58,878 nucleotides of DNA from Gemmatimonadales bacterium (GTDB lineage Bacteria; Gemmatimonadota; Gemmatimonadetes; Gemmatimonadales; GWC2-71-9). How positions within the stretch are numbered: position 1 is the stretch's first letter; each line of letters starts with the position of its first letter. The stretch is taken from the NCBI GenBank assembly GCA_031404115.1, contig JANNGX010000051.1, positions 1-58,878 on the forward strand, given 5' to 3'. The notes beneath the pieces are model-generated. The model did not search any database and had not been told where the DNA came from. It saw nothing but the letters and a program-made list of their open reading frames with translations. Below are positions 34,292 through 51,789 of this stretch, one piece after another. The position numbers were made by a program, and so were the translations under genes.

Positions 34292-36109
34292 TCACTTGCA
34301 ATACGCCTTGTGCATCTGTGCGAGCCGCGGACCGTAGCCCACGACGCCCGCTTTGTACTTGTCGACCGCCTCGGGATTGATCGATCTGCCAAGATCGAGC
34401 GCCGGACCGGCTTCGTCCATCAGCGCCTGCATCTGTTTGACGATATCGCACGACTTGGTGCTCACCGCCTGCGCATCCAGGCCGGACCCCGAGACCACCG
34501 CCGCGATGCCCAGCACGTAGTTGGCGAGGGCGTTCACCTGGCTCCCCTTGGGGGCCAGCCTGGCCGCAGAGCGGGAGGCTTCCAGCGCCGTCGGGAGATC
34601 GGACTGCAGCACCGCCAGCGCCGCGCGGGCCACCAGGTTGGCGTAATTCATTTTGGCCTCGTCGTCGCCAAGCCGCTCGATGTAGCTCGAGAGGGCCAAC
34701 GCATCCTTGAGGCGATTGCCGACGATGAGCCCGTTGATCACCCGGAGGACCGGGGTCACGTCCGCCGAATCCACCGCCATCAGCCGCTGGGTGACGGCCA
34801 CGGCACTGTCCACGGGTCCGGCCAGGGCGTAGGCCTGCGACAGCTGGCCCAGCAGCGTCCCGTTGCTGGGGAACTTGTTCGAGCCCTGGCGCGCCCACCG
34901 CAGGAACCGCGTGCTGTCGACCACCGCCATCTCGCGGCTGAGATGCACCACCGAATCCCGATTCACCTGCACGCCGGACGAATCGACCTTGAAGCGTACC
35001 GTGGAATCGATCGTCACCATGGCGTTCTTGTAGGGAAGCGACGTGGCGTACGTCATCTTGGTGTAGAACGTGGTGTCCGCCTTGGTGCTGTCCAGCGCGT
35101 ACACCTGCTCCAGCGCGTCCACCGCGCACTTATTCTTCTCCGGCTTGCTCTGCACGATGCAGGCGCCGAACTTCAGGTCCCAGAAATCGGAGTTCGCGGG
35201 ATCGAGCTTGATGCCCTCGTCCGCCACATCTTCCGCCGCGTCCGGCCGCCCGTAGTTCTGGAACAGCCGGAAGGCCTCCTTGCGCAACGCCTCGTTGGTG
35301 GGCGCGACGCGGAGCAACTCCTTGAACGTCTCGATGGTCTGCGTGCTGTCGCCCTTGGCCTGGTACTGTACCGCCAGCGCGGTCCAGGCATCGAGCGAGA
35401 GGCGATCACCGTTGGTGGCGGCCTTCAGGTGGGCGATGACGCTGTCCACCGGCGCCTTGTCCTTGATCGCAATCTGCGCCAGGCAATACTCGGCCAAGCC
35501 GTGATGCGGTACGATGCGCAGCGCCTTGGCCGCCGCTTCCCGGGCCTTGACCGTGTTGGTGCTCCGGAGGTTTTCGCAGTTCTTGGCCTCCGGCAGCGCC
35601 CGGAAGGCCGGGCCGAGCGAATCGCCGACCTTCTGGCCGAACTCCTCGAACGACTGATTGGGCAGCTGGGTCACGCGAATCATCTGACCGGCATCGTCGG
35701 TCAGGCCGGCGAGCCGCGCCTCGACGGTGAAGCGCCCGCCGTCACCTTTGAGCAGATTGGAAATCACCATCACCCGCGCGTTGAGCGAGGTGGCGAGCTG
35801 CCGGGCCACCAGCGGAGGCAGCACCGCGTCCACCGGGTAGGCGTACTGCTGCAAGGCCTCGTTCATCTGCTCCCGCGTGATCGCCTTGAACCACTTGTCG
35901 CTCACGTTGGAAACCCGATCCCGCATCCCGCTCCCGATGCGGACCGCCGGGGCGGAATCCGGGGCCGAGAAGCTGAAGGGATTCGCGACCAGAAGGCGCG
36001 GCAGGTTGGCGATTTGCGGAGGCGGCCGGCTGGAGCGCAGTTGGGCCACCGAGGGCACCATCGGCAGCGTCACCGCAGCGGCGGCGAGAACGAGAGGGGT
36101 CAGGCGCAT
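34292..36109 (-). CDS. secreted TPR-like helical-repeat protein of unknown function
   Basis: Start at 36109 gives a signal peptide (MRLTPLVLAAAAVTLPMVPSVAQL). TPR-like stretches occur, e.g. ALAVQYQAKGDSTQTIETFKELLRVAPTNEAL. The gene lies between two tRNA genes. Confidence 0.6.
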   Translation of the reverse strand: MRLTPLVLAAAAVTLPMVPSVAQLRSSRPPPQIANLPRLLVANPFSFSAPDSAPAVRIGSGMRDRVSNVSDKWFKAITREQMNEALQQYAYPVDAVLPPLVARQLATSLNARVMVISNLLKGDGGRFTVEARLAGLTDDAGQMIRVTQLPNQSFEEFGQKVGDSLGPAFRALPEAKNCENLRSTNTVKAREAAAKALRIVPHHGLAEYCLAQIAIKDKAPVDSVIAHLKAATNGDRLSLDAWTALAVQYQAKGDSTQTIETFKELLRVAPTNEALRKEAFRLFQNYGRPDAAEDVADEGIKLDPANSDFWDLKFGACIVQSKPEKNKCAVDALEQVYALDSTKADTTFYTKMTYATSLPYKNAMVTIDSTVRFKVDSSGVQVNRDSVVHLSREMAVVDSTRFLRWARQGSNKFPSNGTLLGQLSQAYALAGPVDSAVAVTQRLMAVDSADVTPVLRVINGLIVGNRLKDALALSSYIERLGDDEAKMNYANLVARAALAVLQSDLPTALEASRSAARLAPKGSQVNALANYVLGIAAVVSGSGLDAQAVSTKSCDIVKQMQALMDEAGPALDLGRSINPEAVDKYKAGVVGYGPRLAQMHKAYCK

Positions 36110-36180
36110 TCCGAACAACCTCCCAAAAGAACCGCCCAAGCTGGGCGGAGGACCCCGCGTCCGGTCGGATCGCGGGAGCA

Positions 36181-36254
36181 TGGGCGAAGAGGGATTCGAA
36201 CCCCCGACATCCTGCGTGTAAGGCAGGCGCTCTGAACCGCTGAGCTATTCGCCC
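36181..36254 (-). tRNA. tRNA-Val (anticodon TAC)
   Basis: Hand-folded cloverleaf of GGGCGAATAGCTCAGCGGTTCAGAGCGCCTGCCTTACACGCAGGATGTCGGGGGTTCGAATCCCTCTTCGCCCA: anticodon loop CTTACAC, T-loop TTCGAAT, 74 nt. Confidence 0.9.
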
Positions 36255-36548: not shown

Positions 36549-37385
36549 CTAAGGCGCTGGACCGGCTTCATCAAGCGGCTCGCCCTCCGTCTCGACGGGG
36601 ACCGTCCAGCCCTGGTCCAGAGCCAGGCGGCGCGGACGGTCCCGACGGCGGCGATACCAGTACGCCCAAATTACCGCTCCTGCGATAATCAGCCAGAACC
36701 CCCCCGCCACGGCCCAGACTACCAGCCCGTACCGGCTCCGGACGTCCTTTCGCCACTCCACCTCGAACTGCGCCGTTCGAGAACCGGTCGTGGCCAGCAC
36801 CGCGTCATCGAATCCTTCCCCAGCCGCGAGCCGGGAAAGGAGCGGGACCAGCGAATGCTCCGGATGCCGGCGCGCCAGCATGGTCACTGCCGAGGCTGCC
36901 AGGCCGTACGCCGCCTGCGCAGTCGAGGCGTTGGCGCGGAGTGACCGGTCAAGTTCGAAGAAACCGGGGATGGCGCCGCGCGCGACGGTCAGATTGAGCT
37001 GGAGGAGCTCGAAGCGGTCCCACTCGCCCGCCGCCACCGCGGCGTACCCTTCATCGAACCAGAGTGGCACCCGCACCCGCACGGCCGCATGCAGGGCCAA
37101 GTGGGCCAGCTCGTGCCGGAGCGTGCGGTGCGGATCGCCGGCGTCCACCCGGATCACGATGGTGCGGGCTCCGGGGAGCGCGAATCCCGCGCCCCAGGAT
37201 GGGGCTCGGCCCTCCATGACCGAATCGAGCGGCGCGGCGCCGCGCACGACGATGAGCCGGAGCGGCCCCGGTTCGCGGCGGCCCAGTCCGTACCAGACCC
37301 GCGGCACCCCGGCCTCCTCGCCCAGGCCGATGGCGAGCGGGAGGTCGGCCTTCCGGGCCGTGACCTGGACCTCGCCAACCCGCAC
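36549..37385 (-). CDS. gluzincin-like (HExxH ... WFDEGYA) putative metallopeptidase with C-terminal TM helix
   Basis: RHELAHLALH followed by PLWFDEGYAAVAAGEW resembles the M1-like MA-clan pattern. The C-terminal YGLVVWAVAGGFWLIIAGAVIWAYWY is a TM helix. The start is ambiguous: GTG 37574 or 37502 overlaps the upstream gene by 148 or 76 nt, and the next canonical start is GTG 37385. Confidence 0.55.
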   Translation of the reverse strand: MRVGEVQVTARKADLPLAIGLGEEAGVPRVWYGLGRREPGPLRLIVVRGAAPLDSVMEGRAPSWGAGFALPGARTIVIRVDAGDPHRTLRHELAHLALHAAVRVRVPLWFDEGYAAVAAGEWDRFELLQLNLTVARGAIPGFFELDRSLRANASTAQAAYGLAASAVTMLARRHPEHSLVPLLSRLAAGEGFDDAVLATTGSRTAQFEVEWRKDVRSRYGLVVWAVAGGFWLIIAGAVIWAYWYRRRRDRPRRLALDQGWTVPVETEGEPLDEAGPAP

Positions 37386-37426
37386 GCCCAGGTATCCGGA
37401 CGGCGTGCCTTGCAGGAGCGCCAGGC

Positions 37427-38290
37427 TCAGGAGGAACCGGAGCGAGGCACCTCCTCGCCCCTCGCGGTCGTGTCGAGAAGCTCCTGACAGCGGCGGGCCC
37501 ACGGTGCGAAGCGATTGGCTCCCGCACCCTGTTCCCAGGTAGCCCGGGCCGTATCGCGCTGCCCGGCGAACCACTGGGCCCGGCCGAGATCGTAGTAGGC
37601 CTCGATCAGGTTGGGTCCCAGCACCAGCGCCTTCTTGAGGAAGGACTCGGCATCGGCCATCATGCCGCGTTCCAGGTACACCAGGCCGAGGTAGTAGTTC
37701 GCGTACAGCGTGGCCTTGCGGTCGTTGTCGAGCCGGATCACCCGGGACAGGTGTTCGATGGCCTCGCCGAAAATCTTCTTCTTGAGGCAGATATAGCCGA
37801 CGTTCACGCGGGCCAGCGCATTGGCCGGCTCTTTGATCAGCACCTTCGAGAAGGTGACGAGCGCGTCGTCGTACTGCTCCGACAGCATCTCGGCCCAGCC
37901 GAGCAGGGAGAGCGCCTGCGGGTCGCCCGGGGAGAGTTCCAGCGCGCGGTTGAGCGCCTGGATCGCTCCCGGAGGATCCCCGAGCGAAATCAGGCTCCAG
38001 CCCTTTTCGATGTAGGTCGAGGCGCCCAGATGATCCCGGTGCAGCTGGGGCACCGGCGCCGCGCCCGCGTCGCTGGCTGACTGCTTGTAGCGGTCCACCA
38101 GGCCACGGATCTCTTCCTTGAGCTCCGCGAGGTCGCCCAGCGCGCCATCCACGCGCTTGAAGAAGCCGATGATCCGGCGTTTGACCTCCTCGCGCTGGAG
38201 CCGGGCCGGCGAGGCGTCCAGGGCGGCGGCGATGTCCCGGAATTCCTCCCGGAGCGCCGCCACGATCGGATCGGGAGTCGGACCGGTCAC
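37427..38290 (-). CDS. TPR-repeat protein (287 aa)
   Basis: N-terminal helical region followed by 4-5 TPR units (e.g. AIQALNRALELSPGDPQAL, AIEHLSRVIRLDNDRKATLYANYYLGLVY). GTG overlaps the cheD stop (GTGA). Confidence 0.7.
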   Translation of the reverse strand: MTGPTPDPIVAALREEFRDIAAALDASPARLQREEVKRRIIGFFKRVDGALGDLAELKEEIRGLVDRYKQSASDAGAAPVPQLHRDHLGASTYIEKGWSLISLGDPPGAIQALNRALELSPGDPQALSLLGWAEMLSEQYDDALVTFSKVLIKEPANALARVNVGYICLKKKIFGEAIEHLSRVIRLDNDRKATLYANYYLGLVYLERGMMADAESFLKKALVLGPNLIEAYYDLGRAQWFAGQRDTARATWEQGAGANRFAPWARRCQELLDTTARGEEVPRSGSS

Positions 38291-38778
38291 AACTCCACTT
38301 TTCCGTGCTCGTAGGACGAGACGATGACCCGGCCGGTGTCGAGGTCGAAATCCACCGAGCGACCGAAGTCGCGGCCGACCGCCTCGCCGACCACCTGAAT
38401 GCCGTGCCGATGCAGAACTTCGCGTGCGGCGTGCACGTTCCGCTCGCCCATCTGGATGGTGCCGGCCGGCTGGAGCGAGGCGAACATGCTGGCCCCCCCC
38501 ACGAGCCTCGCGGTGAGCCGCCGCGACACGGCGCCCATCGCCAGGACCCGCTCGTTCAGGAGGGCCACTGCCGTCGGCGCGAAGCGGCCGGGGGCATCGG
38601 CGCGGGGCCGCCCGACGTTGGTGGAAGGCAGCAGCACGTGGGCCAGGCCGCCCACCTTGGCCATCGGGTCGTACAAGATGACGGCGACGCAGCTTCCCAG
38701 CGCCAGCGCCGTGAGCGTGGCAGGCGCCTTGGCCACCTCGATCGCCGAAATGCCGACGAAGATCCTCGGGGCAGTCAC
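38287..38778 (-). CDS. cheD: chemoreceptor glutamine deamidase CheD
   Basis: 163 aa from GTG 38778, overlapping the cheR stop (GTGA). Motifs LTALALGSCVAVILYDP, GGLAHVLLPS and IGERNV-like MGERNV. The ORF-track version (to 38961) runs into cheR. Confidence 0.9.
   Translation of the reverse strand: MTAPRIFVGISAIEVAKAPATLTALALGSCVAVILYDPMAKVGGLAHVLLPSTNVGRPRADAPGRFAPTAVALLNERVLAMGAVSRRLTARLVGGASMFASLQPAGTIQMGERNVHAAREVLHRHGIQVVGEAVGRDFGRSVDFDLDTGRVIVSSYEHGKVEL
38493..38500. repeat. C8/G8 homopolymer inside cheD (in frame as given)
   Basis: ggcccccccc at 38491-38500. It encodes VGGA on the minus strand. Confidence 0.9.
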
Positions 38779-39593
38779 GGCGCCCTCCGGTAAATGCGAT
38801 GAGTGATATCGACCGGCACCAACCGGGGCTCCGGCAGTGCCACCAGCGATTCGGTGCGTCCCAGCATTAACAGCCCGCCCGGTGTGAGGGCGCGGAAGGC
38901 GGAATCGAGGACCCGGCGCTGGCCTTCCCGTCCCAGGAAGATCAGCAGATTCCGGCAGCAAATCAGATCGCAGGATTCCGGCGCGGTCGCGACCGTCGTC
39001 AGGTCTTCCCGGCGAAACGTGAGGCGGGAACGCAACTCGGATTCCACTTCGAAGCAGCCGTCATGGATGCTGCCGTGGTTGCGCGCCATGACCTCCCGGA
39101 TCGCCACGGCGGCCGGTGGCTGATAGAGACCCGCTTCGGCCTGGACCAGTGCCTGGGGATCCACATCGGAGGCGTGGACCCGGATCCGGTCGGCCGGGAT
39201 CCCGCCCTGCCGCACGGCGTGATCGGACAGCAACATCGCGAGCGTCCACGCCTCCTCCCCCGTGGCGCACCCCATGCTCCAGGCGGTAATCGCGCCGCGA
39301 GCCGTGCCGGTGCGCTCGGTTTCGAGCACATCCCTGAGCCGCTGCCAGCTGTCCGGGTTTCGGAAGAAGCCGGTGACCCTCACCGAAATCGTGTGCAAGA
39401 GACGATCCACTTCGCCGGGATCCTCCCGCAGCATGGCGGCGTACGCGAGCAGGGAATCGGCGCGGAGCGCGCGCATCCGCACCTCGATACGGCGAACCAG
39501 GCAGGAGTCCTTATACCACTCGAACCCCGCAGCCCCGCTCCGGGCCAGCTGATCGATTACCGCCACGAGTCCCAAGTCCTCGCGCCCGGTCAC
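38775..39593 (-). CDS. cheR: chemotaxis protein methyltransferase CheR
   Basis: 272 aa from GTG 39593, overlapping the upstream stop (GTGA). FFRNPDSW, WSMGCATGEEAWTLAMLL, DLICCRNLLIFL. Confidence 0.9.
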   Translation of the reverse strand: MTGREDLGLVAVIDQLARSGAAGFEWYKDSCLVRRIEVRMRALRADSLLAYAAMLREDPGEVDRLLHTISVRVTGFFRNPDSWQRLRDVLETERTGTARGAITAWSMGCATGEEAWTLAMLLSDHAVRQGGIPADRIRVHASDVDPQALVQAEAGLYQPPAAVAIREVMARNHGSIHDGCFEVESELRSRLTFRREDLTTVATAPESCDLICCRNLLIFLGREGQRRVLDSAFRALTPGGLLMLGRTESLVALPEPRLVPVDITHRIYRRAP

Positions 39594-41203
39594 GACATCC
39601 GCAGGGTATCGAGGTTGGCCCGGGCGAGCTGGTGCCCGGGGTTCAGCGCCACGGCGCGCTCCCAGCATTCGCGGGCCCGGGGACCATTGCGCTCCCGGAA
39701 GGCAAGATTGCCCAGCTTGAAATAGACATCGTCACCGAGGGTGGGATCGAGTGCCGTGGCACGCTCGTAGAGCGTCGCCGCATCCTCGTAGCGGCCGGAG
39801 CGGTAACAGAGGTCGCCCAGGTTCTTGAATGGCTGGGGCAGCGAGGCGTCTTCGGCGATCGTTTGCCGGAGCATGGTTTCCGCTTCCGCCACCGAGCCGG
39901 TTGCCTCCATGAGCACGGCGCAATTATTCCGGAGCACCACGTCCTCCGGATGCCGCTCGGTACCCTCGAGCGCCAGGCCAAGCGCGTACTCGAGATCTTC
40001 GGTGCCGACCGCGGCGCGGGTCGCGGCCCAGTACCAGAGCGCGGGCGGCGGATCCCGCAGCAGTTCCCGGGCCCGTTGCAGTCGCTGGCGCGCCACGCCA
40101 GCGTCGTGGCGTTCGAGCGCCAGGATACCCCAGCTGGTGTGAATCCTCGGATCGTCCGGCGCGCGGCTGGCGGCTTCCGCCAGCACGGTTTCGGCCTGGT
40201 CGAGCCGGCCCATGTGCTCCAGCGCCACCCCCAGGTTGTGCAGCAACGCGGCCCGGGGTCCGCTCCGGTCCAGCGCCTGACGGAAGTGGTCCGCGGCCTC
40301 GGCCCACTGATGCTGGCGCGCGGCAATGAGCCCCAGATAGAACGGAGCGCTTCCTTCGGCCGGGCGGAGCTCGGCCACGCGGCGGAACTCCCGCAGCGCC
40401 TCGTCCAGCATGTCGGTGCGGTAGAAGGCGACGCCAAGGTTGCGGTGCTCCTCGATCTGGGCCTCGAGCAGTCGCGATGGCGCCGCCATCGAGGACACCC
40501 CGACCTTGTGCGCGAGCCCGGCGGTCACCAGGCCGTAGAGCGCCTGCCCCGCTTCGAACTCGGAGAGGCCCGACGCGTCGATCACGGCCCGCAGGTCGCG
40601 GCGACCGTCCAGAAGCGGGAGTATCCGCCGCTGCGCCTCGGTAAACTCGGACTGGTGGCCGGCGACTTGGCCCTCGAGAGCTGAGTAGATCAGGTCGAAG
40701 CTGGGGATCTTCTTCTCTATCAGGCTCCATTCGTCGACCCGGCGCGCGCCTTCGAGGAGCAGCGATTCGGGATTGATCTTCTCGAGCAGATCTTCCGAAT
40801 CGGGGTGGACGCCGGCCTCGAAACTGAAGGTGCCGGTGTTCCAGCCAAAGAGCGAATACACCGCTTCGTCGATCTGGATCCGCACGAACCGGCGGAGTCC
40901 CTCCGGAGCCAGGATCCCGAGGTTGACCAGCAGGTCGCCGATCCGGCGGCCGGGCGCGGTGTCCTGCAGCGCGAGGGCCTGATCGAGCTGGGCCCGGGTG
41001 ACGGTCCCGGTCGCGAGCAACATGTCGCCCAGGCGGTCCCGGCGATTCGTGATCGCGGCGTACGTGATCCAGCCTTCGTCGAAGAAAATCGAGCCGTGAC
41101 GCTGGCGGTCCGCGACGGACAGGCAGCCGGTACGCCTGCCCAGGAACAGGAGCTGGATCACATCGGGAAGGCTGGCCTCCTTGAGACTGCCCTTGATGGC
41201 CAT
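39590..41203 (-). CDS. PATAN (DUF4388) domain protein fused to TPR repeats (537 aa)
   Basis: The N-terminus MAIKGSLKEASLPDVIQLLFLGRRTGCLSVADRQRHGSIFFDEGWITYA is a canonical DUF4388/PATAN start. The C-terminal half has about 7 TPR units. No receiver domain. Its ATG shares one base with the stop of the AAA+ gene. Confidence 0.75.
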   Translation of the reverse strand: MAIKGSLKEASLPDVIQLLFLGRRTGCLSVADRQRHGSIFFDEGWITYAAITNRRDRLGDMLLATGTVTRAQLDQALALQDTAPGRRIGDLLVNLGILAPEGLRRFVRIQIDEAVYSLFGWNTGTFSFEAGVHPDSEDLLEKINPESLLLEGARRVDEWSLIEKKIPSFDLIYSALEGQVAGHQSEFTEAQRRILPLLDGRRDLRAVIDASGLSEFEAGQALYGLVTAGLAHKVGVSSMAAPSRLLEAQIEEHRNLGVAFYRTDMLDEALREFRRVAELRPAEGSAPFYLGLIAARQHQWAEAADHFRQALDRSGPRAALLHNLGVALEHMGRLDQAETVLAEAASRAPDDPRIHTSWGILALERHDAGVARQRLQRARELLRDPPPALWYWAATRAAVGTEDLEYALGLALEGTERHPEDVVLRNNCAVLMEATGSVAEAETMLRQTIAEDASLPQPFKNLGDLCYRSGRYEDAATLYERATALDPTLGDDVYFKLGNLAFRERNGPRARECWERAVALNPGHQLARANLDTLRMS

Positions 41204-43164
41204 CAGCGAAGCTCCGCCAGCAGCCGGTCGGCGACCGCGGGCCAGTGCATGACGGTCTTCTCCGGGCTTCGCACCTGCCCCATGCCCGGCGTGAGGATGC
41301 CGCTCCCGCGCCGGGGGTCGGGGCGCCGCACGCCGCGTGACAGGCCGATGTCCATCACGTCGAGGACTTCGCGCGCGAGGGCGGGGCTGGGCTCGACCTG
41401 CTGCGCCGCGGCCTCACCCAGGACCCGTTGCACCATGCCCTGCACCGCGCGCACCGAGTCGGCGGGACGAGCGGCGAGGAAGTCGGCGAGGGCTGCGTCG
41501 TCCGCCGCGGCGGAGCCGGCCAGCAGCCGCTTCACGACGGCGAGGCGGACCTCGCGGTCGGGAGACGGCAGCTCCACCGCCAGGCCGCCGCCCAGTCGTG
41601 CCAGGAGGCGACCGTCCAGCCCCTCGAGTTCTTCGAGCGGCCGGGTGGTGCTGAACACCATCTGACGGCGACCTTCGGTCAGCTCGCCGATCAGGAGGTT
41701 GAGCTCGTCCTGAGCGGCGCGATCGCCGGCCAGCAGATGCAGGTCATCGAGCAGCAGCGCCCCGACCCAGCCATAGCGATGCCGCCAGGACGCCAGCGCG
41801 TCGGGGTCCGGAAGGGCCCGAACCTCCGCGGCGAACGCGTGGCTGCCCAGGCAGGCGACCGGCGCCACCCCTGCCACCGCCAGCGCATTGCCCAGCGCGT
41901 GGAGGTAGTGGGTCTTTCCAGTACCGCTCGCCCCGATCACCACCAGTGGAGAGTAGCGCCGCCCCGGCTCGGCGATGATGTCCCGCGCCGCCATCATCGG
42001 GAGCCGAATCGACGGGCCTTCGGCGAAGTCTTCCCAGCGGTAGTGCGAAAGCGGGGCGGTCAGCGGGGCGCTGCGCGATCCGGCCTGCGCCACCAGCGCG
42101 CGGGCGGCCGCCACCTGGTCGGGGTCTCGGAACACTTCGGCGCCGGCGAGATCCGGCGCGAGCTGCGCGGCCTTCGCGCCCAGGGCAATGATCTCCGCGG
42201 CATCCGACTCGTAGGCGGCGAGGACCGCCTCGGGGTCGCCCGGCGCCTCATCGGCGAGCAGCGCCTCGAGACGCCGGGTGCGCAGCCCCTCCCCGCCCCA
42301 GCGCAGCAACGCCTCACCGATGCGCCGGCGCCAGCGGTCCACCTGTTCGGAGAGCCCGGCCGAAACCTCCGACAGGAACGCCCCGAACTCGTCACCACCC
42401 AACCCGGCCGGCACCGCGTCGGCCTCGACCTGAGGAACCGGCGCCACCGGCGCGCCGATCAGGAGCAGCGCATCGCGAGGGGAGAGCGGCAACGCGGTGG
42501 CCTCCTGAAATGCCACCAGGCGGGAGAGCGCACCCGTATAGTCGCGCATCGAGGCGAACTCGGCGTCGGCCACTGCGCGGACCACGTCATCGAGCAGCAC
42601 GGTCTCGTGCCCGTGCAGCCGGCGACGGAGGATCGCGTAGCGGGCCTCCGCGCCGGGCAACGAGAGCTGCACCGTGGTGCCCTCGCCGAGCCGGCGCAGC
42701 AGCCGGGCGTCCAGACCGGTCAGTTGCTCCACCGGCACGGAGGTGGCCACCACTACCTCGCGCCCCGCGCCGCGCCGCCCGTCCAGGAGGTCCGCAACCA
42801 GGCCCTGACAGTCCTGGTGTCGCGCCAGGTGCTCGAGGTCGTCGATCAGCACCAGGTCGGCGGCCTGGAGCTCGGCCCGGCACATCTCGCCTCGGGCCAC
42901 GAGAAGCGCCGACCGGTAGCGCTCGGCCAGCTCGCCCGGGTCGAACGATTCGACGACGGCGGTCGGATGCTGGGCCCGGATTCGACCGGCGATCGCCTGG
43001 AGCAGCTCGGTCTTTCCACTGCCGGAGGAGCCCACGATCACCAGCGGCGCAAAGGGGACGCCGCTCGCGTCGGCCACCGCGCGCGCGGCCGCCGCCGCGG
43101 GCCGGTTGGCCGCATCGAGCACGAAGGTCTCGAAGTCGGGCCGAGCCGTCAGCACACTGGTCAC
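41203..43164 (-). CDS. tandem DnaA/Hda-like AAA+ ATPase (two domain-III-like modules, no DnaA domain IV)
   Basis: 653 aa. Module 1: FETFVLDAANRPA, PLVIVGSSGSGKTELL, LVLIDDLEHL, VVVATSVPVEQLTGLDARLLRRLGEG. Module 2: PLVVIGASGTGKTHYL, LLLDDLHLLAGDRAAQDELNLLIGEL, MVFSTTRPLEELEGLDGRLLARLGGG. GTG overlaps the mglA stop (GTGA). Confidence 0.75.
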   Translation of the reverse strand: MTSVLTARPDFETFVLDAANRPAAAAARAVADASGVPFAPLVIVGSSGSGKTELLQAIAGRIRAQHPTAVVESFDPGELAERYRSALLVARGEMCRAELQAADLVLIDDLEHLARHQDCQGLVADLLDGRRGAGREVVVATSVPVEQLTGLDARLLRRLGEGTTVQLSLPGAEARYAILRRRLHGHETVLLDDVVRAVADAEFASMRDYTGALSRLVAFQEATALPLSPRDALLLIGAPVAPVPQVEADAVPAGLGGDEFGAFLSEVSAGLSEQVDRWRRRIGEALLRWGGEGLRTRRLEALLADEAPGDPEAVLAAYESDAAEIIALGAKAAQLAPDLAGAEVFRDPDQVAAARALVAQAGSRSAPLTAPLSHYRWEDFAEGPSIRLPMMAARDIIAEPGRRYSPLVVIGASGTGKTHYLHALGNALAVAGVAPVACLGSHAFAAEVRALPDPDALASWRHRYGWVGALLLDDLHLLAGDRAAQDELNLLIGELTEGRRQMVFSTTRPLEELEGLDGRLLARLGGGLAVELPSPDREVRLAVVKRLLAGSAAADDAALADFLAARPADSVRAVQGMVQRVLGEAAAQQVEPSPALAREVLDVMDIGLSRGVRRPDPRRGSGILTPGMGQVRSPEKTVMHWPAVADRLLAELR

Positions 43165-43763
43165 AGCGCCGATGGCCTGACGGCCAGTCGCTGGAGGACG
43201 AGGCCCGAGAGCGCCTTCAGGGTTTCGAACACCCCGGCGCCGTGGAGCGCATCGGCCGTCTGGCTCGGCACGCCACGAAAATTGAAGGCGTCGTCCAGGT
43301 CCGCTGGCGCCAGGATCAGATCGGGCGGAAGGTCCTGCTTGTTGTACTGAAGCACCAGAGGGAGCTGACGGATGTCCACGCCCTGTTCGAGAAGGTTTTC
43401 CTGCAGGTTCTGGAAGCTTTCCAGGTTGTCGTCGAAGCGGCGCGCCTGGCTGTCCACCACGAACACGACCCCGTCGGCACCCTGGAGCACCAATCTTCTG
43501 GTGGCATTGTAGTACACCTGGCCCGGCACGGTGTAGAGCTGGAACCGGGTGGTGAAACCGGAAATCATCCCCAGTTCGAGCGGGAGAAAATCGAAGAACA
43601 GGGTCCGATCCGACTGGGTGGCCAGCGACACCATGTTGCCCCTTCTATCCTCGGGGACCCGGCCGTGGATATAGAGCAAGTTAGTCGTCTTCCCGCATCG
43701 CCCTGGCCCGTAGTAGACCAGTTTGCAGGTGATTTCGCGGGTGGTGAAGTTTACCAGCGGCAT
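43161..43763 (-). CDS. mglA: Ras-like small GTPase MglA
   Basis: 200 aa, colinear with Myxococcus MglA. Motifs KLVYYGPGRCGKTT (P-loop), DRTLFFDFLP (intrinsic Arg region), YTVPGQVYY (Thr instead of Asp in G3, an MglA hallmark) and QYNKQD (NKxD). Confidence 0.92.
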   Translation of the reverse strand: MPLVNFTTREITCKLVYYGPGRCGKTTNLLYIHGRVPEDRRGNMVSLATQSDRTLFFDFLPLELGMISGFTTRFQLYTVPGQVYYNATRRLVLQGADGVVFVVDSQARRFDDNLESFQNLQENLLEQGVDIRQLPLVLQYNKQDLPPDLILAPADLDDAFNFRGVPSQTADALHGAGVFETLKALSGLVLQRLAVRPSAL

Positions 43764-43767
43764 GGGG

Positions 43768-44229
43768 TCATCGCCCGAACAGCGCCCGAAGGCTGCTGTT
43801 CAGTTCGGCTTCGAAGTCTTCGGCCAGCACCTGGCGGGGCGGCTCGTCGGCCGGCGCCGCGTTCGCCAGGTCCATGGCCATGCGGGCAAAAAAGAGCTGG
43901 ACCAATCCGAGTGATGTCTCCCCGCCGAACACCACCAGCCCCAGCCAGCGCCCCCGCGGGGTTTCGAAGGCGGCCAGGTAGACTCCCACCGCCGACCCAT
44001 GGTGAACCACAGCGCCCAGCGGACGGGAGCCCATCACCTTGGCGAGCTCGAAGGTGGAGGCCATGATGCCGGCGCCGAGCGCCGCCGCGGACATGACGTC
44101 GAGCGCCCGCGTGAACCCGTGCTGCGCCACCACCTGTCCCGAGGAGGTCATGAGGAGGGTGACCCGCGCGGCGGATTCGGCGAGGAAGGTCGTGAGGGGC
44201 GCTTCGACCCACGCCTCCAGCGCGCGCAT
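43768..44229 (-). CDS. mglB: Roadblock/LC7-domain protein, MglB-like (candidate GAP of MglA)
   Basis: 153 aa with a Roadblock pattern (VTLLMTSSGQVVAQHG...AAALGAGIMAS...GLVVFGGETSLGLV). It lies 4 nt upstream of mglA, the classical mglB-mglA order. Confidence 0.8.
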   Translation of the reverse strand: MRALEAWVEAPLTTFLAESAARVTLLMTSSGQVVAQHGFTRALDVMSAAALGAGIMASTFELAKVMGSRPLGAVVHHGSAVGVYLAAFETPRGRWLGLVVFGGETSLGLVQLFFARMAMDLANAAPADEPPRQVLAEDFEAELNSSLRALFGR

Positions 44230-44570
44230 CAGGCCGCCCGCCCGGCCGCGTCGAGCAGCCCCAGTCGCAGCTCGCCGGCGTTCACGTCCGGCGCCGCCAC
44301 GGCGACAATGAGCAATCCGCTCTGCCCCGGCGCGGCAAACAACGACCCGCTCGTCCCCGCCAGATGCATCATCACCGGTTCGGGCTGGCCCAGGGCGATG
44401 GTGACGCTCCGCATCCGCCCGGCCAGGCTCGCGGCGAGCGCCGCCACGGCGGAACCATCGACACCCTCCATCAGGGTATCGGCCACGACGAGCCCGTCAT
44501 CCCGCGACACGATCAGGACTCCGCGTACGCCGGGGATGCGGGTCAGCGCGGCGAGGACGGCGACGAGCAT
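44229..44570 (-). CDS. second Roadblock/LC7-domain protein (113 aa, MglC-like paralogue?)
   Basis: ATG at 44570 gives MLVAVLAALTRIPGVRGVLIVSRDDGLVVADTL...GLLIVAVAAPDVNAGELR, a typical Roadblock pattern. It has one-base overlaps at both ends. Confidence 0.7.
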   Translation of the reverse strand: MLVAVLAALTRIPGVRGVLIVSRDDGLVVADTLMEGVDGSAVAALAASLAGRMRSVTIALGQPEPVMMHLAGTSGSLFAAPGQSGLLIVAVAAPDVNAGELRLGLLDAAGRAA

Positions 44571-45364
44571 CAGACCAGTTCCTCCAGCCACCGTCGGGCG
44601 GACGAGGCGGCGCGCTCCGCCAGGAGCGCCAGCCGCCCCGCGGGAATCTCGCGCGGCCGCATGACCAGCAACACCGAATCGCCGGTGGGAGCCCGGAGCT
44701 CCAGGTGCGCCGGCCCGCCCTCGAGCGCGATGCGCCGCCAGGGACCGAGCCCGAGCAGCCGCGCGGCCCGCTCCGCTTCCCTGGTGACGCCGGCCAGGGC
44801 CGCGGCCACCGCGTCGCCGGCATCGGCCCCGTTCGCGTCGCTCACGCCGCCGGCGAGTACCCGCCCGTCGCGATCCACCAGGAGCGCCTGCCCCGGCTCC
44901 GGCTCCAGCGCGCGGGAGGGATCGGGAGCGGGTTCGGTGAAGCCGGGAACCAGCCGGGCGCCGGTGGCGCCACGCACCCGGTCGAGCGCGCTGCGGAGCA
45001 CCGCATCTTCGGGGGCCAGTTCGACCGCGCGCTCCAGGTAGCGAAGGCTGCGAGAGTGATCGCCGGCCCGGTAGCAGAGGAAGGCCAGGCCCTTGTGCGC
45101 GCCGATGTGCCCGGGGTCGAGCCGGAGCACCGTCGTCCAGGCGTCGAACGCCAGGTCGCCCTCGCCGCGGTCACTTCGAATCCGGGCCAGCAGATCGTAG
45201 GCCCCGGCCATTTCGGGATAACGGGCGGCACCCTGCTCGGCCACGGTCAGCGCGGATTCCAGCTGGGCGCGGCGTCGCAGTGCTTCCGCGAGCGGAAGGA
45301 ACGCCAGGCTGGAGGGATCCCGGGCCAGCTGCGTCGTCAGCGCCTGGATGTCGTCCGCGATCAC
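44570..45364 (-). CDS. TPR - Roadblock/LC7 fusion protein (264 aa)
   Basis: The N-terminal about 130 aa are TPR units (LPLAEALRRRAQLESALTVAEQGAARYP..., AFDAWTTVLRLDPGH...). The C-terminal about 100 aa are Roadblock-like (ALLVDRDGRVLAGG...AVAAALAGVTREAERAARLLGLG...SVLLVM). GTG overlaps the upstream stop. Confidence 0.65.
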   Translation of the reverse strand: MIADDIQALTTQLARDPSSLAFLPLAEALRRRAQLESALTVAEQGAARYPEMAGAYDLLARIRSDRGEGDLAFDAWTTVLRLDPGHIGAHKGLAFLCYRAGDHSRSLRYLERAVELAPEDAVLRSALDRVRGATGARLVPGFTEPAPDPSRALEPEPGQALLVDRDGRVLAGGVSDANGADAGDAVAAALAGVTREAERAARLLGLGPWRRIALEGGPAHLELRAPTGDSVLLVMRPREIPAGRLALLAERAASSARRWLEELV

Positions 45365-46509
45365 TTCGCCCCCCGCAATCGTTGCACGAGATGGCGGGCC
45401 GCGGGCACCACGCCGCTCACTTCCTCCACATGCGATTCCTCATCGGTGGCCTTGGCCGGGAGCGCAAGCCAGGCCTCGAAGCTGTGCACCGACTCGTCGA
45501 GCCGCCCGGCGCCCAGCAGTGCCCAGGCGAGCAGCCGGAGCGGCTTGGCGCCCCCGGGATCGAGCCGCACCGCTTCCCGCAGCGCGCGCTCGGCCTCGGG
45601 ATAGCGCCGCTCCGCCAGAAGAATCGCGCCCGCCAGCACGTGGGTACGCGGATCGTCCGGGAAGGCGTCGAGCGCCGCCTGCGCCGCCGAGCGTGCCGCC
45701 TCGCCATTGCCGGCGCGAAGCTGCTCCTCACCCTGCCGGAGCAGGGCCTCGGCGTCGGCCCGCGGCGCCGCGCGCGCCGAGTCCAGCGCGGGGTCACGCA
45801 GCACAATAACGCCGGCACAGGCGAGGCCGAAGAGCGCCCGCGCCACGTCGAATTCCGGCTCCCCGAGCGACAGCGCGATGGCCTGCACGTCGCGTTCCCC
45901 GTCGGCCGCGGAAATGACCCGCCATTCGAACGGCGTCAGGCTGAGGGACCCCGCTTCGTTGGAAACCGGGGGCGCCAGCCGCGCGATGACCCCGACGTGC
46001 GCCACCCGGGCCTGGATCCGCGACCACTCGTCGATCCGCCGGGCGCCCTCGAGCAGGAGGTGCTCCACCGAAATGCGCAGATCGGTTTCCCGGGGGATTG
46101 CCTCGGGAGCGCACTCCTCGAAAATGAAATACCCCTCGGACCAGCCCAGCATGGTGAACACCACGTCCTCGATATGGGCCCGCACCTGCGTGGTGAGCTC
46201 GCGGGCACCGAGGGCGCCCGCCGCCACCAGGATCTCGCCGATGCGGCGCTGGTCGCCCTGATCCTGCGCGGCGCGGGCCTGGAGCAGATCCTCTTGCCGG
46301 ATTTTGCCGGCGCGCAGCAGCGCCGTGCCAAGCGGGTGCGGATTCGACTGAATTGCTGCGGCCACCACCGCAGCCTCGTGGAACCAGATGGTGCCCTCGT
46401 TCTGGCGGAGCTCGGATGTGATCAGGAGCGCGCCGGTCTTCCGGCCCAGGTCGAGCAGCTGGAAGACATCGTGAATGCCCAGCTCGCGGAGCGGCCCCTG
46501 AATCGCCAT
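45361..46509 (-). CDS. PATAN (DUF4388) domain protein fused to TPR repeats (382 aa)
   Basis: N-terminus MAIQGPLRELGIHDVFQLLDLGRKTGALLITSELRQNEGTIWFHEAAVVAA, with C-terminal TPR units. It is a paralogue of 39590..41203. Confidence 0.75.
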   Translation of the reverse strand: MAIQGPLRELGIHDVFQLLDLGRKTGALLITSELRQNEGTIWFHEAAVVAAAIQSNPHPLGTALLRAGKIRQEDLLQARAAQDQGDQRRIGEILVAAGALGARELTTQVRAHIEDVVFTMLGWSEGYFIFEECAPEAIPRETDLRISVEHLLLEGARRIDEWSRIQARVAHVGVIARLAPPVSNEAGSLSLTPFEWRVISAADGERDVQAIALSLGEPEFDVARALFGLACAGVIVLRDPALDSARAAPRADAEALLRQGEEQLRAGNGEAARSAAQAALDAFPDDPRTHVLAGAILLAERRYPEAERALREAVRLDPGGAKPLRLLAWALLGAGRLDESVHSFEAWLALPAKATDEESHVEEVSGVVPAARHLVQRLRGAK

Positions 46510-46510
46510 C

Positions 46511-49201
46511 TCAGGCCTCGCTGCCCTGGAGGATGTGGGCCAGCTCGCGAGCCGAACGCGCCTGGGCCCGCGCCGCGGCAGCGAGCGAGCCGGTCGGCTC
46601 GAGCGCCACCACCCGCTCCCAATCGGAGACCGCGGCGCCGAACCGGCGCAGCCTGGCCTGCCCCACGCCCCGGTGAAAAAGGGCGGTCACGTGCTCGGGG
46701 TGAAATCGGAGCACCCGGTCGAAGGCGGCGATGGCATGGTGGGAGCGTCCCTCGTCGGCCAGCGTACGACCGAGGAGCACCAGCGCCTCGAGGGCGTACG
46801 GCTCGGCCAGCAGCAGATCGACCAGGAGGCGGGTGGCTTCCTGGGTAAGCCCGGTCCGGCGGAGCAGATCGCCCAGCGCGAGGCCCGCGTCGAGAAAGGT
46901 CGGCAGGAGCTCGAGGGCGCGCTGATAGGCGGCGCGCGCCGCTCCCGGCCGCTGCAGCTCCTCTTCGACGACACCCTTCTCATACCAGGCCTGCACCAGC
47001 GATGGATCCAGCTCCAGGGCCCCAGTGAGTGTGTCCAGCGCCCCTTCCCGGTCGCCCTGCTGGCGCAGCACGCTCCCACGCAGCAGCAGGAGATCGGGAC
47101 GCCCCGGCGCGAGGGCCGCGGCCCGGGCCGTATCCATCGCCGCGCCGTCGAGGTCGCCGATCAGCTGGCGGGCCCGCGCCCGCATCACGAGGGCATCGGC
47201 GTGGTTGGGCGCGAGGGCCGCCAGTCGCTCGGCCACCGCGATCGCGTCGGACCCGCGGCCCAGGGCCACCAGGGCGGCGGCCTCTCCCTGGAGAATCTCC
47301 ACGTCGTCCGGAGCGAGCGCACTGGCCTCCCGGTAGCGCTCCAGCGCCTCTCCGAACAGGCCCCGCTTGGCAAAGACGTCGCCCAGCAGCGCAGCACCGG
47401 TGGCGGGCGACGCCCCGCGCTGCACGGCCCGGTGGACCTCGGCCGCGGCGGTGTCGAGCAGACCCTTGCCGATGAGATCGCGAGCCAGCGAATACGGATC
47501 ATCCCGCGGCGACGGCGAGACCGCCGCCGGCTGATCGGGGGCAAGCTGTCCGAACAGCCCGTCGAGCACACCCGGATCGAAGGCGAACCCCGGCGTCGAC
47601 GCCAGCACTCCCGGCATGGCGGTGAGCGATGGGGGTATCGGGAGCAATGATTCTTCAAACTGGAGCTGGATCGCCAGCGCATACGATTCCGGGACGTAGA
47701 ACGAGTCGAGCTCCAGTGCGCGCCGGGTTTCCCGCAGCGCGTCATCGAAGGCGCCAAGCTGGCTCAGGGCGAAGCCCAGGTTGTAGCGCGCCGAGGCGTT
47801 GTTGGGATCGCCCTCCACCGAGCGGGCAAAGGCGTTCCGCGCGTCCTGGTGGCGGCGCAGTTCCATCAGCACCAGCCCGATGCCGTTCCACGCCGCGGCG
47901 TCACCCGCCCGTTCCGCAACCAGGCCTCGATACGCCTCCAGCGACGGCTTCAGCTCCCGCCGTTGCAGGTGCAGCAGGCCGAGGTTACGGCGGGCCCCGG
48001 CAAAATCGGGCCGGGCCCGGAGCGCGGCGTGAAGCGCCTCCAGCGCCGGCCCGGTATCGGCGTCGCTCGCGCCCGCCACCCCCAGGTTGTTCCAGGCCAG
48101 CGCGTAGGTGGGATCGGCGTCCACCGCCTTCCGGTAGGAGCCGCGGGCCTCCTCGCGCCGTCCGGCCTGGTGCAAGCAGACGCCCCGCTCGTTCCAAAGC
48201 TCGGCATTCCCGGGCTGGCGCTCCAGCAGGCGGTCGTAGAATTCGATGGCCGCGCCGAAGTCCTTCCGGAGCAGGTGGGTCTCGGCCATCGCCTCGAGCG
48301 CGGTGGCTTCGTCCTCGCCGGACTCGAGCGCCAGCCGGCACTCCCGCAGCGCTTCGGTGAGATAGCCGCGCTTGCGGAACGCCACCGAAAGGCTCAGGTG
48401 CGGCTGCAGCGAAGCCCCCTCCCGCCCCGCGGCCGCCGAAGCCCCTCCCCCGACGGGCCTGCGGGGGGCGGCGCCGCGCTGCGCGCCGATCAGGAGATTG
48501 GGTTGGGCGGTGCCGAGCGAGGGATTGAGCCCGATGGCGCGCCGTGTGGCCGAGCGCGCCGCTTCGTGATGGCCCAGGTCTCCATAGAGGAAACCGAGGA
48601 TGTAGTGCACCTCGGCGTGGTCGGGATTGAGCGCGACCGCTTCCGTGAGGACCGTCAGCGCCTTGTCGTTGAGGCCCCGGTTGTAGAGTGCCCGACCGAG
48701 GCAGAGCCGCGCTACCGAGCTGCGCGGATCCACCTCGCAGGCGCGCTGGAACCACTCGGTGGCCAGCTCCGGACGACCGCGAGATTGTTCCACCAGGCCG
48801 AGCTTGATCAGCGCGGTCGCGTCGGCAGGGTCGCTCCGGAGCAGTTCCTCGTACTGCTCCGCCGCCTGATCCTGTTGCCCCAGCGCGACGTAGGCGCGGG
48901 CCAACTCCAGCCGTGCGTTGCGGGCATTGGGGTCTCTGGCCAACTGCTCCCGAAGGTCGCCGATGATCGTGTCGTAGTACCCCGACTCCCGCTGCACCGT
49001 CTCGAGGTTGTCCTGGGCCACCCGCATCTCGGGATCGAGTTCCAGCGCGCCGCTGAACGCCGCGATGGCCTCCGGGATCATCCCCCGTTCGTAATAGAAG
49101 ACGCCGAGATTGTTTTGGGCGCCCGCATCGGAGGGGTCGATGCGCCGGGCCAGCGAGCGGAGAGCGTCGGCTTCCCGGCCGGTCGGTGCGGCCGCCGGCA
49201 T
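46511..49201 (-). CDS. large TPR-repeat protein (896 aa)
   Basis: More than 15 TPR units throughout (e.g. AIAAFSGALELDPEM, AAEQYEELLRSDPADA, AIEFYDRLLERQPGNAELWNERGVCL). No TM helix, HAMP or methyl-accepting signature seen. Confidence 0.8.
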   Translation of the reverse strand: MPAAAPTGREADALRSLARRIDPSDAGAQNNLGVFYYERGMIPEAIAAFSGALELDPEMRVAQDNLETVQRESGYYDTIIGDLREQLARDPNARNARLELARAYVALGQQDQAAEQYEELLRSDPADATALIKLGLVEQSRGRPELATEWFQRACEVDPRSSVARLCLGRALYNRGLNDKALTVLTEAVALNPDHAEVHYILGFLYGDLGHHEAARSATRRAIGLNPSLGTAQPNLLIGAQRGAAPRRPVGGGASAAAGREGASLQPHLSLSVAFRKRGYLTEALRECRLALESGEDEATALEAMAETHLLRKDFGAAIEFYDRLLERQPGNAELWNERGVCLHQAGRREEARGSYRKAVDADPTYALAWNNLGVAGASDADTGPALEALHAALRARPDFAGARRNLGLLHLQRRELKPSLEAYRGLVAERAGDAAAWNGIGLVLMELRRHQDARNAFARSVEGDPNNASARYNLGFALSQLGAFDDALRETRRALELDSFYVPESYALAIQLQFEESLLPIPPSLTAMPGVLASTPGFAFDPGVLDGLFGQLAPDQPAAVSPSPRDDPYSLARDLIGKGLLDTAAAEVHRAVQRGASPATGAALLGDVFAKRGLFGEALERYREASALAPDDVEILQGEAAALVALGRGSDAIAVAERLAALAPNHADALVMRARARQLIGDLDGAAMDTARAAALAPGRPDLLLLRGSVLRQQGDREGALDTLTGALELDPSLVQAWYEKGVVEEELQRPGAARAAYQRALELLPTFLDAGLALGDLLRRTGLTQEATRLLVDLLLAEPYALEALVLLGRTLADEGRSHHAIAAFDRVLRFHPEHVTALFHRGVGQARLRRFGAAVSDWERVVALEPTGSLAAAARAQARSARELAHILQGSEA

Positions 49202-49829: not shown

Positions 49830-49841
49830 CGAGTCCTCCAC

Positions 49842-51426: not shown

Positions 51427-51789
51427 TCACCCGAGCAATCGCTGCACCGCTTCAAGCACCCGCGACGGCTGGAAGGGCTTGACCACGAAATCCTTGGCGC
51501 CCGCCTGGATCGCCTCGACCACCAGTGCCTGCTGTCCCATTGCGCTGCACATCAGGATCTTGGCCTCCGGGTGGTCCTTGCAGATTTCCCGGACCGCTTC
51601 GATGCCGCCCATGTCCGGCATGACGATGTCCATCGTGACGAGATCGGGTTTGAGCTGGCGATATTTCTCCACCGCCTGGGCGCCGGATTCCGCCTCGCCG
51701 ATCACCTCGTACCCGGCCTGGGTGAGAATGTCGGTAATCATCGTCCGCATGAAGATCGCGTCGTCGCAGACGAGCACGGTATGGCCCAC
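51427..51789 (-). CDS. cheY: single-domain response regulator CheY
   Basis: 120 aa. VLVCDD, TMDIVMPDMGG (phospho-Asp), MCSAMG, VVKPF. GTG start with AAGGGGG upstream. Confidence 0.9.
   Translation of the reverse strand: MGHTVLVCDDAIFMRTMITDILTQAGYEVIGEAESGAQAVEKYRQLKPDLVTMDIVMPDMGGIEAVREICKDHPEAKILMCSAMGQQALVVEAIQAGAKDFVVKPFQPSRVLEAVQRLLG

Follow-up and report, generated by a model that had tools for sequence, protein, structure and literature searches.

A tandem DnaA domain III protein without a DNA-binding domain, encoded in the MglA polarity gene cluster of Gemmatimonadota

The window analysed here is a stretch of 58,878 nucleotides from a Gemmatimonadales bacterium (contig JANNGX010000051.1 of assembly GCA_031404115.1, positions 1 to 58,878 of the forward strand), and the subject of this report is a gene at 41203..43164 on the minus strand whose product, here called DnaA2x, contains two copies of domain III of the replication initiator DnaA. 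The open reading frame (ORF) is complete, with a GTG start, a TGA stop and 653 amino acids (aa). The original prediction, made from the letters alone, had placed a 653-aa frame at these positions without stating the strand; frame and GTG start were found as described, on the minus strand. The GTG start (43164..43162) overlaps the TGA stop of mglA (43163..43161) as GTGA (minus-strand text gcgctGTGAccagt), and the TGA stop of the DnaA2x gene has one base in common with the ATG of the next gene, at 39590..41203 (minus-strand text cttcgcTGATGgcc). Both overlaps had been predicted and could be read directly from the minus-strand sequence. The 4-nt start overlap and the 1-nt stop overlap are repeated at the homologous loci L001, L003, L087, L088 and L089, and locus L173 has the 4-nt start overlap only. 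A simple promoter and terminator scan detected no promoter-like or terminator-like site near either DnaA2x junction. As judged from the gene arrangement, DnaA2x is evidently co-transcribed and translationally coupled with MglA and with the PATAN-TPR protein encoded by the next gene. Long plus-strand ORFs run antisense to real genes in the window, including one of 640 aa opposite DnaA2x (41428-43350, plus strand), and are typical shadow ORFs of a genome with 69 % GC; all family and homology matches were obtained for minus-strand frames, which were the frames searched.

Both halves of the protein resemble DnaA domain III. Module 1 (aa 5-237; 42454..43152, minus strand) was delimited by a phmmer match to domain III of Bacillus subtilis DnaA (8bv3; aa 5-221, E=2e-21, ungapped throughout) and by the secondary structure of an AlphaFold2 (AF2) model. 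In translation it carries a Walker A motif, GSSGSGKT, at aa 45-52 (nt 43009-43032), a Walker B motif, LVLIDDLE, at aa 104-111, a box VI/VII-like stretch, ATSVPVEQLTGLDARLLRRLGEG, at aa 140-162 with box VII reading RLLRRL, and the sensor-II segment MRDYTGAL at aa 206-213, in which R207 is the sensor-II arginine. Module 2 (aa 373-605; 41350..42048, minus strand) matches the same DnaA domain over aa 374-601 (phmmer E=6.8e-25) and by Foldseek (8bv3_A), and contains Walker A GASGTGKT at aa 411-418 (nt 41911-41934), Walker B LLLDDLH at aa 470-476, the box VI/VII-like stretch STTRPLEELEGLDGRLLARLGGG at aa 505-527 with box VII RLLARL (R519 and R523), and the sensor-II segment VRAVQGMV at aa 571-578 with R572 as its arginine. 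Sequence identity is about 28 % between either module and DnaA domain III and 31 % between the two modules.

Searches with the whole protein gave the same assignment. Against Pfam, DnaA2x matched Bac_DnaA (PF00308) at E=1.9e-51 in two stretches, and among PDB sequences it matched DnaA (E 1e-21 to 1e-25), Hda (4e-3) and DnaC (0.35). The NCBIfam DnaA model TIGR00362 scored 265.9 bits summed over the two modules, below its equivalog cut-off of 343.9, and the match spanned only profile positions 105-336 of 437, while the Hda model TIGR03420 reached 96.2 bits (cut-off 194.8) and IstB 55 bits (cut-off 200). No Bac_DnaA_C (PF08299, domain IV) was found in DnaA2x by Pfam at E<=0.01, whereas a canonical DnaA (P0228) gave 1.3e-25, and the Pfam comparison likewise yielded no DnaA_N (PF11638, domain I), module 1 beginning at residue 5. 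Only about 48 largely disordered residues follow module 2, a disordered run of roughly 30 and then a short helix, which leaves no space for a domain IV. The remaining P-loop candidates did not compete with this assignment. Pfam matches to NACHT, STAND, ABC and FtsK families covered the P-loop only, with a few marginally above gathering scores and none rivalling Bac_DnaA, and an IstB/DnaC identity was set aside as far weaker than the relationship to DnaA.

An AF2 model of DnaA2x, built from 36 family members, had a mean predicted local distance difference test (pLDDT) score of 83.8. In this model each module forms a five-stranded AAA+ core with a lid, and two helices are inserted between its beta2 and beta3 strands (H76-88/H92-101 in module 1, H441-449/H454-465 in module 2). 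The alignment of module 1 to DnaA is ungapped in this region. A two-helix insertion at this position is the hallmark of the AAA+ initiator clade. The best Foldseek match in the PDB was B. subtilis DnaA domain III (8bv3_A; template modelling (TM) score 0.89, root-mean-square deviation (rmsd) 2.4 Å), followed by the Aquifex and Thermotoga DnaA proteins. By sequence and by model, then, both halves are assigned to the DnaA branch of the initiator clade and to no unrelated P-loop family. The two DnaA domain III-like modules of the original prediction, with their P-loops, Walker B motifs and box VI/VII segments, were borne out by translation, Pfam and phmmer, as was the absence of domain IV; its label of "DnaA/Hda-type" holds for the DnaA part, and the Hda part fell away with the low TIGR03420 score and the E value of 4e-3 in the PDB. 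The residues through which B. subtilis DnaA contacts single-stranded DNA, I190 and K222, align with R84 and H116 in module 1 and with V and D in module 2, and because these equivalents differ in both modules, a DnaA-like grip on single-stranded DNA is unlikely. In a rough neighbour-joining tree, the module-1 sequences of the main family group together and the module-2 sequences do likewise, so the tandem arrangement looks ancestral to the family.

The remainder of the protein is specific to this family and was analysed with an alignment of 36 relatives at 44-88 % identity and a larger one of 162 full-length sequences (161 relatives and the window protein). Module 1 is followed by a spacer (aa 238-256; 42397..42453, minus strand) that is predicted to be disordered (pLDDT <50 for aa 244-257), poorly conserved and variable in length in the 36-sequence alignment. 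A helical middle domain then occupies aa 257-365 (42070..42396, minus strand), with 20 invariant columns in the same alignment and the signature DEFxxFLSxV…W…G.(R)T.RLE.LL…APDLAG…FRDPD. This stretch of about 110 aa between the modules is no mere linker but itself a domain conserved as well as module 2 and better than module 1. Modelled alone, it reached a pLDDT of 87.8 and a predicted TM score (pTM) of 0.74, yet this confident stand-alone model returned 0 Foldseek matches in the PDB at E<=10, and its profile gave no better match among PDB sequences than a designed protein at E=0.039 and nothing below 0.1 in Pfam.

At the opposite end, after a disordered stretch, lies a C-terminal motif (aa 631-653; 41206..41274, minus strand) that reads V-[RK]-S-x-E-K-[MI]-[VI]-x-x-W-P-x-x-x-D-R-L-[IL]-x-E-L-R in the alignment of 162 full-length sequences, with K636 present in 152/162, W641 in 156/162 and P642 in 151/162. 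This peptide is retained even in relatives at 24-28 % identity, and the C-terminal 55 aa have no Pfam match. A conserved peptide behind a disordered tether looks like a docking motif, and that it might be a ligand for TPR domains, given six TPR-containing proteins in the operon, is only a guess. The alignments demonstrate what reads as purifying selection on the nucleotide sites, on the private helical domain and on the C-terminal peptide.

All AAA+ catalytic residues are present in both modules of the window protein, and across the 162 sequences the nucleotide sites are largely maintained. The Walker A lysine is kept in 151/162 sequences in module 1 and in 153/162 in module 2 (both lysines in >90 % of sequences), the first Walker B aspartate in 153/162 (with glutamate in 8 more) and 156/162, and the sensor-II arginine in 127/162 (with lysine in 26 more) and 148/162, and almost every aligned full-length sequence has at least one intact Walker A/B site. 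Conservation of the sensors and of the arginine finger, named in the original prediction as a check, thus divides, with the sensors mostly kept and the arginines at the DnaA finger position more variable. R158 and R523, which align with the DnaA arginine finger, are found in 133/162 and 125/162 sequences, respectively, with leucine replacing R523 in 20.

The sequences that deviate are instructive. Clade A (P0070-P0083) has lost the ATP site of module 1 (now GSREGAGSE and IDG/IEG) and has leucine as the module-2 finger, and it retains the arginines of module 1 and the site of module 2; in the nearest relatives of this clade, the module-2 finger is already gone and the module-1 site is still present. 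In clade B (P0192, P0208, P0217, P0226, P0227 and others), it is the module-2 site that is destroyed, and a canonical DDRLRSRFE box in module 2 is kept together with an intact module-1 site. The module-1 site is impaired in 18 sequences, and 12 of these 18 have also lost the module-2 arginine (odds ratio ~9.5), compared with an odds ratio of ~0.9 for the same-module control, in which loss of the module-1 site was set against loss of the module-1 arginine. This co-variation is the pattern expected if each arginine were to serve the ATP site of the other module, head to tail, and if both interfaces are used, DnaA2x must associate beyond the monomer.

The genes around DnaA2x encode a polarity module. 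Immediately upstream is mglA (43161..43763, minus strand, 200 aa; E=3e-70 to Myxococcus xanthus MglA 6hjh and 4e-64 to Thermus thermophilus MglA), preceded in turn by an mglB-like gene for a Roadblock GTPase-activating protein (43768..44229, minus, 153 aa; PDB MglB E=3e-9, with a weak match to NF052242), a Roadblock/LC7 protein (44229..44591, minus; Pfam Robl_LC7), a TPR and Roadblock protein (44570..45364, minus; Pfam Robl_LC7 and TPR), a PATAN (DUF4388)-TPR protein of 382 aa (45361..46509, minus; Pfam) and a TPR protein of 896 aa, here TPR896 (46511..49201, minus; Pfam). Downstream, the gene at 39590..41203 (minus) encodes a second PATAN-TPR protein of 537 aa (Pfam DUF4388, E=2.5e-35), which contains an MshE-type motif for binding of cyclic di-GMP (c-di-GMP) at aa 57-108 (window 40880-41035, minus; NF053729, 51.4 bits against a cut-off of 38); the upstream PATAN-TPR protein scored 25.7 bits with the same model, below threshold.

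Chemosensory genes, all identified through Pfam, lie on either side of this set. The proximal accessory part comprises cheW (51807..52184), cheY (51427..51789), cheA (49792..51420) and cheC (49206..49841), and the distal part cheR (38775..39668), cheD (38287..38961), a TPR gene (37427..38290) and a gene for a Peptidase_MA_2 protein (36549..37574), all on the minus strand and the last four syntenic in L001-L024. Read along the minus strand, the full order is yggS, divIVA, ileS, a dksA/traR-like gene, lspA, rluD, cheW, cheY, cheA, cheC, TPR896, the 382-aa PATAN-TPR gene, the TPR-Roadblock gene, the Roadblock gene, mglB, mglA, DnaA2x, the 537-aa PATAN-TPR gene, cheR, cheD, TPR, Peptidase_MA, TPR, mraW, ftsI and murE/murF and onwards. 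No gene for a methyl-accepting chemotaxis receptor was found among the annotated cluster genes, and neither the window nor any locus with gene-by-gene annotation showed dnaN or an origin-type context. The cluster is wedged between the yggS to rluD genes and the mraW-ftsI-mur cluster for division and cell wall (window 33142-58509, minus), the rluD and mraW flanks recur in those related loci that extend far enough, and a role in division or budding rather than in motility is conceivable. Just 3' of the Peptidase_MA gene, a terminator-like GC hairpin with a T-run is found at 36132-36148 (minus), inside the 5' end of a listed 629-aa TPR ORF (34292..36181). The operon may end at this hairpin, and the true start of the distal TPR gene probably lies downstream of the listed one, but the signal is weak, as the scan gave fewer hits of this kind than chance alone would.

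Relatives of DnaA2x are numerous. A search of 5.8 billion proteins yielded 410 matches, the best 120 of which are mostly ~640-690 aa long with a few shorter fragments, at 44-90 % identity, and the named sources among these best 120 are metagenome-assembled genomes (MAGs) of Gemmatimonadales or Gemmatimonadota. An exhaustive search of representatives at 50 % identity identified 153 proteins at E<=1e-30, among them full-length relatives down to 24-30 % identity. Of these roughly 150 cluster representatives, nearly all that carry a taxon name belong to Gemmatimonadota. Databases label these relatives "DnaA/Hda family protein", "ATP-binding protein" or, at JGI, "chromosomal replication initiator protein DnaA", the DnaA label being seen on P0002, P0005, P0007, P0142 and others. 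As the pattern K[TS]H[LY]LH..GN of the alignment used for genome scanning (A3) also occurs in true DnaA, only L004-L024 among the loci from that scan are family members, and L025-L083 are mostly ordinary dnaA genes.

The linkage to mglA was assessed from both sides. The same order of ~17 genes was present in 24/24 loci obtained through DnaA2x, and in a second sample of 80 metagenomic loci anchored on MglA (71-95 % MglA identity), DnaA2x begins at the mglA stop, directly downstream, in 73/73 of those that could be evaluated with >=300 nt 3' of mglA. The association with mglA, which the original prediction had proposed to test by co-occurrence, is therefore essentially invariant in the main family, and the set of MglA, MglB and Roadblock genes is fixed in the main Gemmatimonadota family. 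Its description as a polarity and Che operon holds for the polarity cluster, but the che genes are accessory, since they are absent from L089, where the entire module otherwise lies in synteny between rluD and mraW. L088 is without cheR and cheD. The chemosensory complement varies in the other direction as well, as cheB and one or two cheW genes, absent from the window, are inserted between cheD/cheR and the distal TPR gene at L003:11168-13097, at L173:10794-12739 and in several of L008-L024. One contig among the 24 loci is labelled Acidimicrobiia and one simply "bacterium", both with full Gemmatimonadota-type synteny. The former, L020 (CAXMUQ010000073.1, uncultured Acidimicrobiia), carries the complete cluster at 40-78 % identity to the window proteins and was probably assigned to the wrong bin rather than coming from an actinobacterium.

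More distant relatives occur in different surroundings. In a divergent branch (~28-29 % identity, dead module-2 site), DnaA2x has a PATAN-TPR gene on one side and a Roadblock or rluD gene on the other, and in the most distant branch (24-26 %), whose nearest named relative is "Candidatus Cloacimonetes bacterium 4572_55", it follows genes in the order cheW, cheY, cheA, others, cheC, TPR and PATAN, with no MglA or MglB on the contig. A further distant member, at L172:3765-12094 (GCA_003697105.1, "Gemmatimonadetes bacterium"; ~25 % identity by tblastn), directly follows a TPR896-like gene, with no MglA, MglB or PATAN nearby, and two bactofilin genes lie ~5 kb upstream of it. The conserved adjacency to mglA fails for L084, L091 and L172. 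Where MglA is not adjacent, a PATAN gene adjoins DnaA2x in L084/L085, L086 and L091 and a large TPR gene, a relative of TPR896, in L084/L085 and L172, so that one or both are adjacent in all five distant loci examined. Because they are still neighbours in the most distant branches, the large TPR protein and PATAN look like the oldest partners.

From its identity, architecture, conservation and gene linkage, we infer that DnaA2x is no replication protein but belongs to the MglA–PATAN–TPR module as a switch or scaffold that is gated by ATP and associates with itself, a reading to which we give a probability of roughly 0.5. In Gemmatimonadota it would be a subunit specific to the MglA/MglB/Roadblock–PATAN–TPR module for polarity and signalling, translated together with it and acting as an ATP/ADP switch like DnaA and not as a motor. 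The box-VII arginine of each module would reach in trans to the ATP bound by the other, and such contacts would drive head-to-tail self-association into an oligomer or short filament that forms without DNA. The assembled protein would display its middle domain and its C-terminal WP peptide as docking sites for MglA and/or for the PATAN-TPR and TPR proteins, thereby gating the assembly or location of the polarity complex, and hydrolysis of ATP would dissolve the assembly. In this way, an ATP-gated layer could be added onto the GTP switch of MglA, with a possible c-di-GMP input through the PATAN-TPR protein.

Several observations weigh against this proposal or limit its reach. The full-length AF2 model has a pTM of 0.42, and the relative placement of the modules is therefore undefined. 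The co-variation of arginines and sites rests on few independent lineages, and P0121, P0126, P0135, P0144 and P0160, for example, are without the module-1 arginine box and keep both ATP sites; since several intermediate lineages have lost this box, two-way trans-catalysis is not universal. DnaA2x also evolves faster than its neighbours (33-66 % identity across the 24 loci found through the ATPase, against 71-92 % for MglA), and since MglA is absent beside the most distant relatives, it may not be the direct partner.

The tolerance of lost residues bears on a different reading, in which DnaA2x is a static scaffold or pseudo-enzyme that bridges TPR, PATAN and MglA proteins with ATP structural only or unbound and with no switching cycle. 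Whole lineages tolerate one destroyed ATP site or the loss of one or both box-VII arginines, and the middle domain and C-terminal peptide, neither of which is part of the ATPase, are among the best conserved stretches of the protein, as this reading would have it. The near-universal retention of at least one intact Walker A/B site, the presence of both lysines in more than nine tenths of sequences and the full set of catalytic residues in both modules of the window protein speak for a working ATPase, and we consider a purely static role unlikely. The closeness to DnaA could instead mean that DnaA2x acts as a replication or cell-cycle coupler, which would co-oligomerise with domain III of the true DnaA as a decoy or in the manner of Hda, cap filaments or stimulate ATP hydrolysis, and so tie initiation to polarity and division. 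An identity of ~28 % to domain III, a TM score of 0.89 and the retained box-VII arginines are compatible with such a function, as is the place of the cluster, which loci of sufficient length show flanked by divIVA…rluD on one side and the mraW-ftsI-mur division genes on the other. Against it, the translation holds no Hda-type clamp motif, the Hda model scores well under its cut-off (96 against 194.8 bits), gene-by-gene annotation of the loci showed no replication gene, the invariant neighbours are MglA, PATAN and TPR genes, and distant relatives lie in chemosensory and pilus clusters. A coupler of this kind seems to us quite improbable.

Two AAA+ modules in one chain also bring to mind the type-II tandem remodellers (p97, NSF and ClpB-like), whose double ring would here disassemble polarity or pilus complexes, and many p97/Cdc48 chains were indeed among the Foldseek matches at E ~1e-13. 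These alignments have an rmsd of 17-22 Å and TM scores of 0.25-0.34, so that the separate modules match and not their arrangement, and both sequence and structure place the modules in the initiator clade, which forms open helical assemblies and is without substrate-threading pore loops; a remodeller is accordingly very doubtful. Lastly, the name "chromosomal replication initiator protein DnaA" given to relatives by JGI and other pipelines, and the 69 % GC of a window with long ORFs on both strands, could be taken to mean that the gene is the organism's genuine dnaA, the product of mis-assembly or fusion, or a shadow ORF. However, more than 150 cluster representatives, at 24-90 % identity, have the same single ORF of ~650 aa, and only the minus-strand frame shows strong homology. 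That DnaA2x is not the chromosomal initiator, a possibility raised in the original prediction and checked here in part, agrees with the lack of domains I and IV, a score of 265.9 against the equivalog cut-off of 343.9, and a place in a polarity operon that is not beside dnaN. For practical purposes, a true initiator or an artefact is excluded, and this explanation is effectively refuted.

The switch or scaffold reading can be taken further, more tentatively. DnaA2x might be a DnaA-type ATPase freed from DNA that now serves as an ATP-driven, self-polymerising polar landmark or timer working with a Ras-like GTPase, with ATP (DnaA2x), GTP (MglA) and c-di-GMP (PATAN-TPR) jointly setting polarity, the choice of division site or budding in Gemmatimonadota; we regard this as a speculative possibility. 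Initiator-clade AAA+ proteins (DnaA, Orc/Cdc6, DnaC and IstB) are, as far as is known, devoted to loading machines onto DNA. If the switch or scaffold reading is true, a family that keeps the ATP switch without any DNA-binding element would broaden the known roles of these ATPases, and the landmark or timer, if true, would give the replication-initiator clade its first function unrelated to nucleic acids. With RomR and RomX lacking from the cluster in this phylum, DnaA2x may also be the organiser that its MglA systems would otherwise miss. The robust association with mglA comes as a surprise for work on DnaA as much as for work on polarity, while the mechanism is proposed from sequence and models. 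On the practical side, automatic annotation as DnaA can lead to wrong dnaA counts and wrongly predicted origins in MAGs of Gemmatimonadota, and the idea is experimentally approachable because the cultured Gemmatimonas aurantiaca T-27 appears to carry the cluster, in the neighbourhood of GAU_1409.

A second, unrelated non-replicative context for DnaA-type ATPases is found at L090:2681-13179 (a JGI 3300068090 contig that includes P0177) and also in P0193, in which DnaA domain III modules without domain IV are fused to the c-di-GMP-binding domain MshEN. The fusion proteins are 921 aa and 1876 aa long, are accompanied by a 246-aa single-module protein and belong to a type IV pilus-like cluster, in which they are flanked by the gene of a prepilin peptidase (pilD) and that of a PilB-type ATPase. 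The existence of such fusions in a pilus cluster hints at a link of DnaA domain III with the c-di-GMP modules PATAN and MshEN. The MshEN paper contains no mention of DnaA fusions.

Compared with known systems, DnaA2x has in common with DnaA (B. subtilis 8bv3/8btg, Aquifex aeolicus 1l8q/3r8f) a complete domain III fold with Walker A and B, sensor I, the box-VII arginine and the sensor-II lid. It differs in that this domain is duplicated and stands without domains I, II and IV, the residues that contact single-stranded DNA are not kept, a middle domain and a C-terminal WP peptide are added, and the genomic context is an MglA cluster and not oriC/dnaN. Hda/HdaA likewise consists of DnaA domain III only, with a functional arginine finger and no DNA-binding domain, but it has just one module, preceded by an N-terminal motif that binds the beta clamp, whereas DnaA2x has two modules and, in translation, an N-terminus (VTSVLTARPDFETFVLDAANR…) in which no QL[SP]LPL-type clamp motif was found; the N-termini of its relatives are short and variable.

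As in the M. xanthus MglA–MglB–RomR/RomX system and the Bdellovibrio MglA–TPR (Bd2492) system, the window combines MglA with a Roadblock GTPase-activating protein, extra Roadblock proteins, TPR partners and a link to a Frz-like chemosensory system (PMC4316618, PMC3441718). RomR and RomX are not encoded in the window cluster, which has PATAN-TPR proteins and the tandem ATPase instead. The literature retrieved on the M. xanthus and Bdellovibrio MglA modules mentions no AAA+ or DnaA-like component, and the literature search returned nothing that combines MglA or PATAN (or Roadblock, or Gemmatimonadota) with a DnaA-like ATPase. PATAN regulators themselves are described as associated with MglA/MglB genes and type IV pili by Makarova et al. 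2006, as cited in PMC4316618, and PATAN response regulators are reported for Synechocystis (bioRxiv 10.1101/2021.06.11.447907); the window conforms to the published gene association, with PATAN genes flanking mglA. For G. aurantiaca T-27, a survey of prokaryotic small GTPases tables GAU_1409 as "PATAN>MglA>-PATAN>", with one unnamed gene between mglA and PATAN that is not discussed. Because of the synteny at related loci, rather than from the T-27 sequence itself, this unnamed gene most likely encodes the tandem DnaA-like ATPase. What is new is the architecture and the functional context for DnaA-type ATPases, in a family already present in databases under misleading names.

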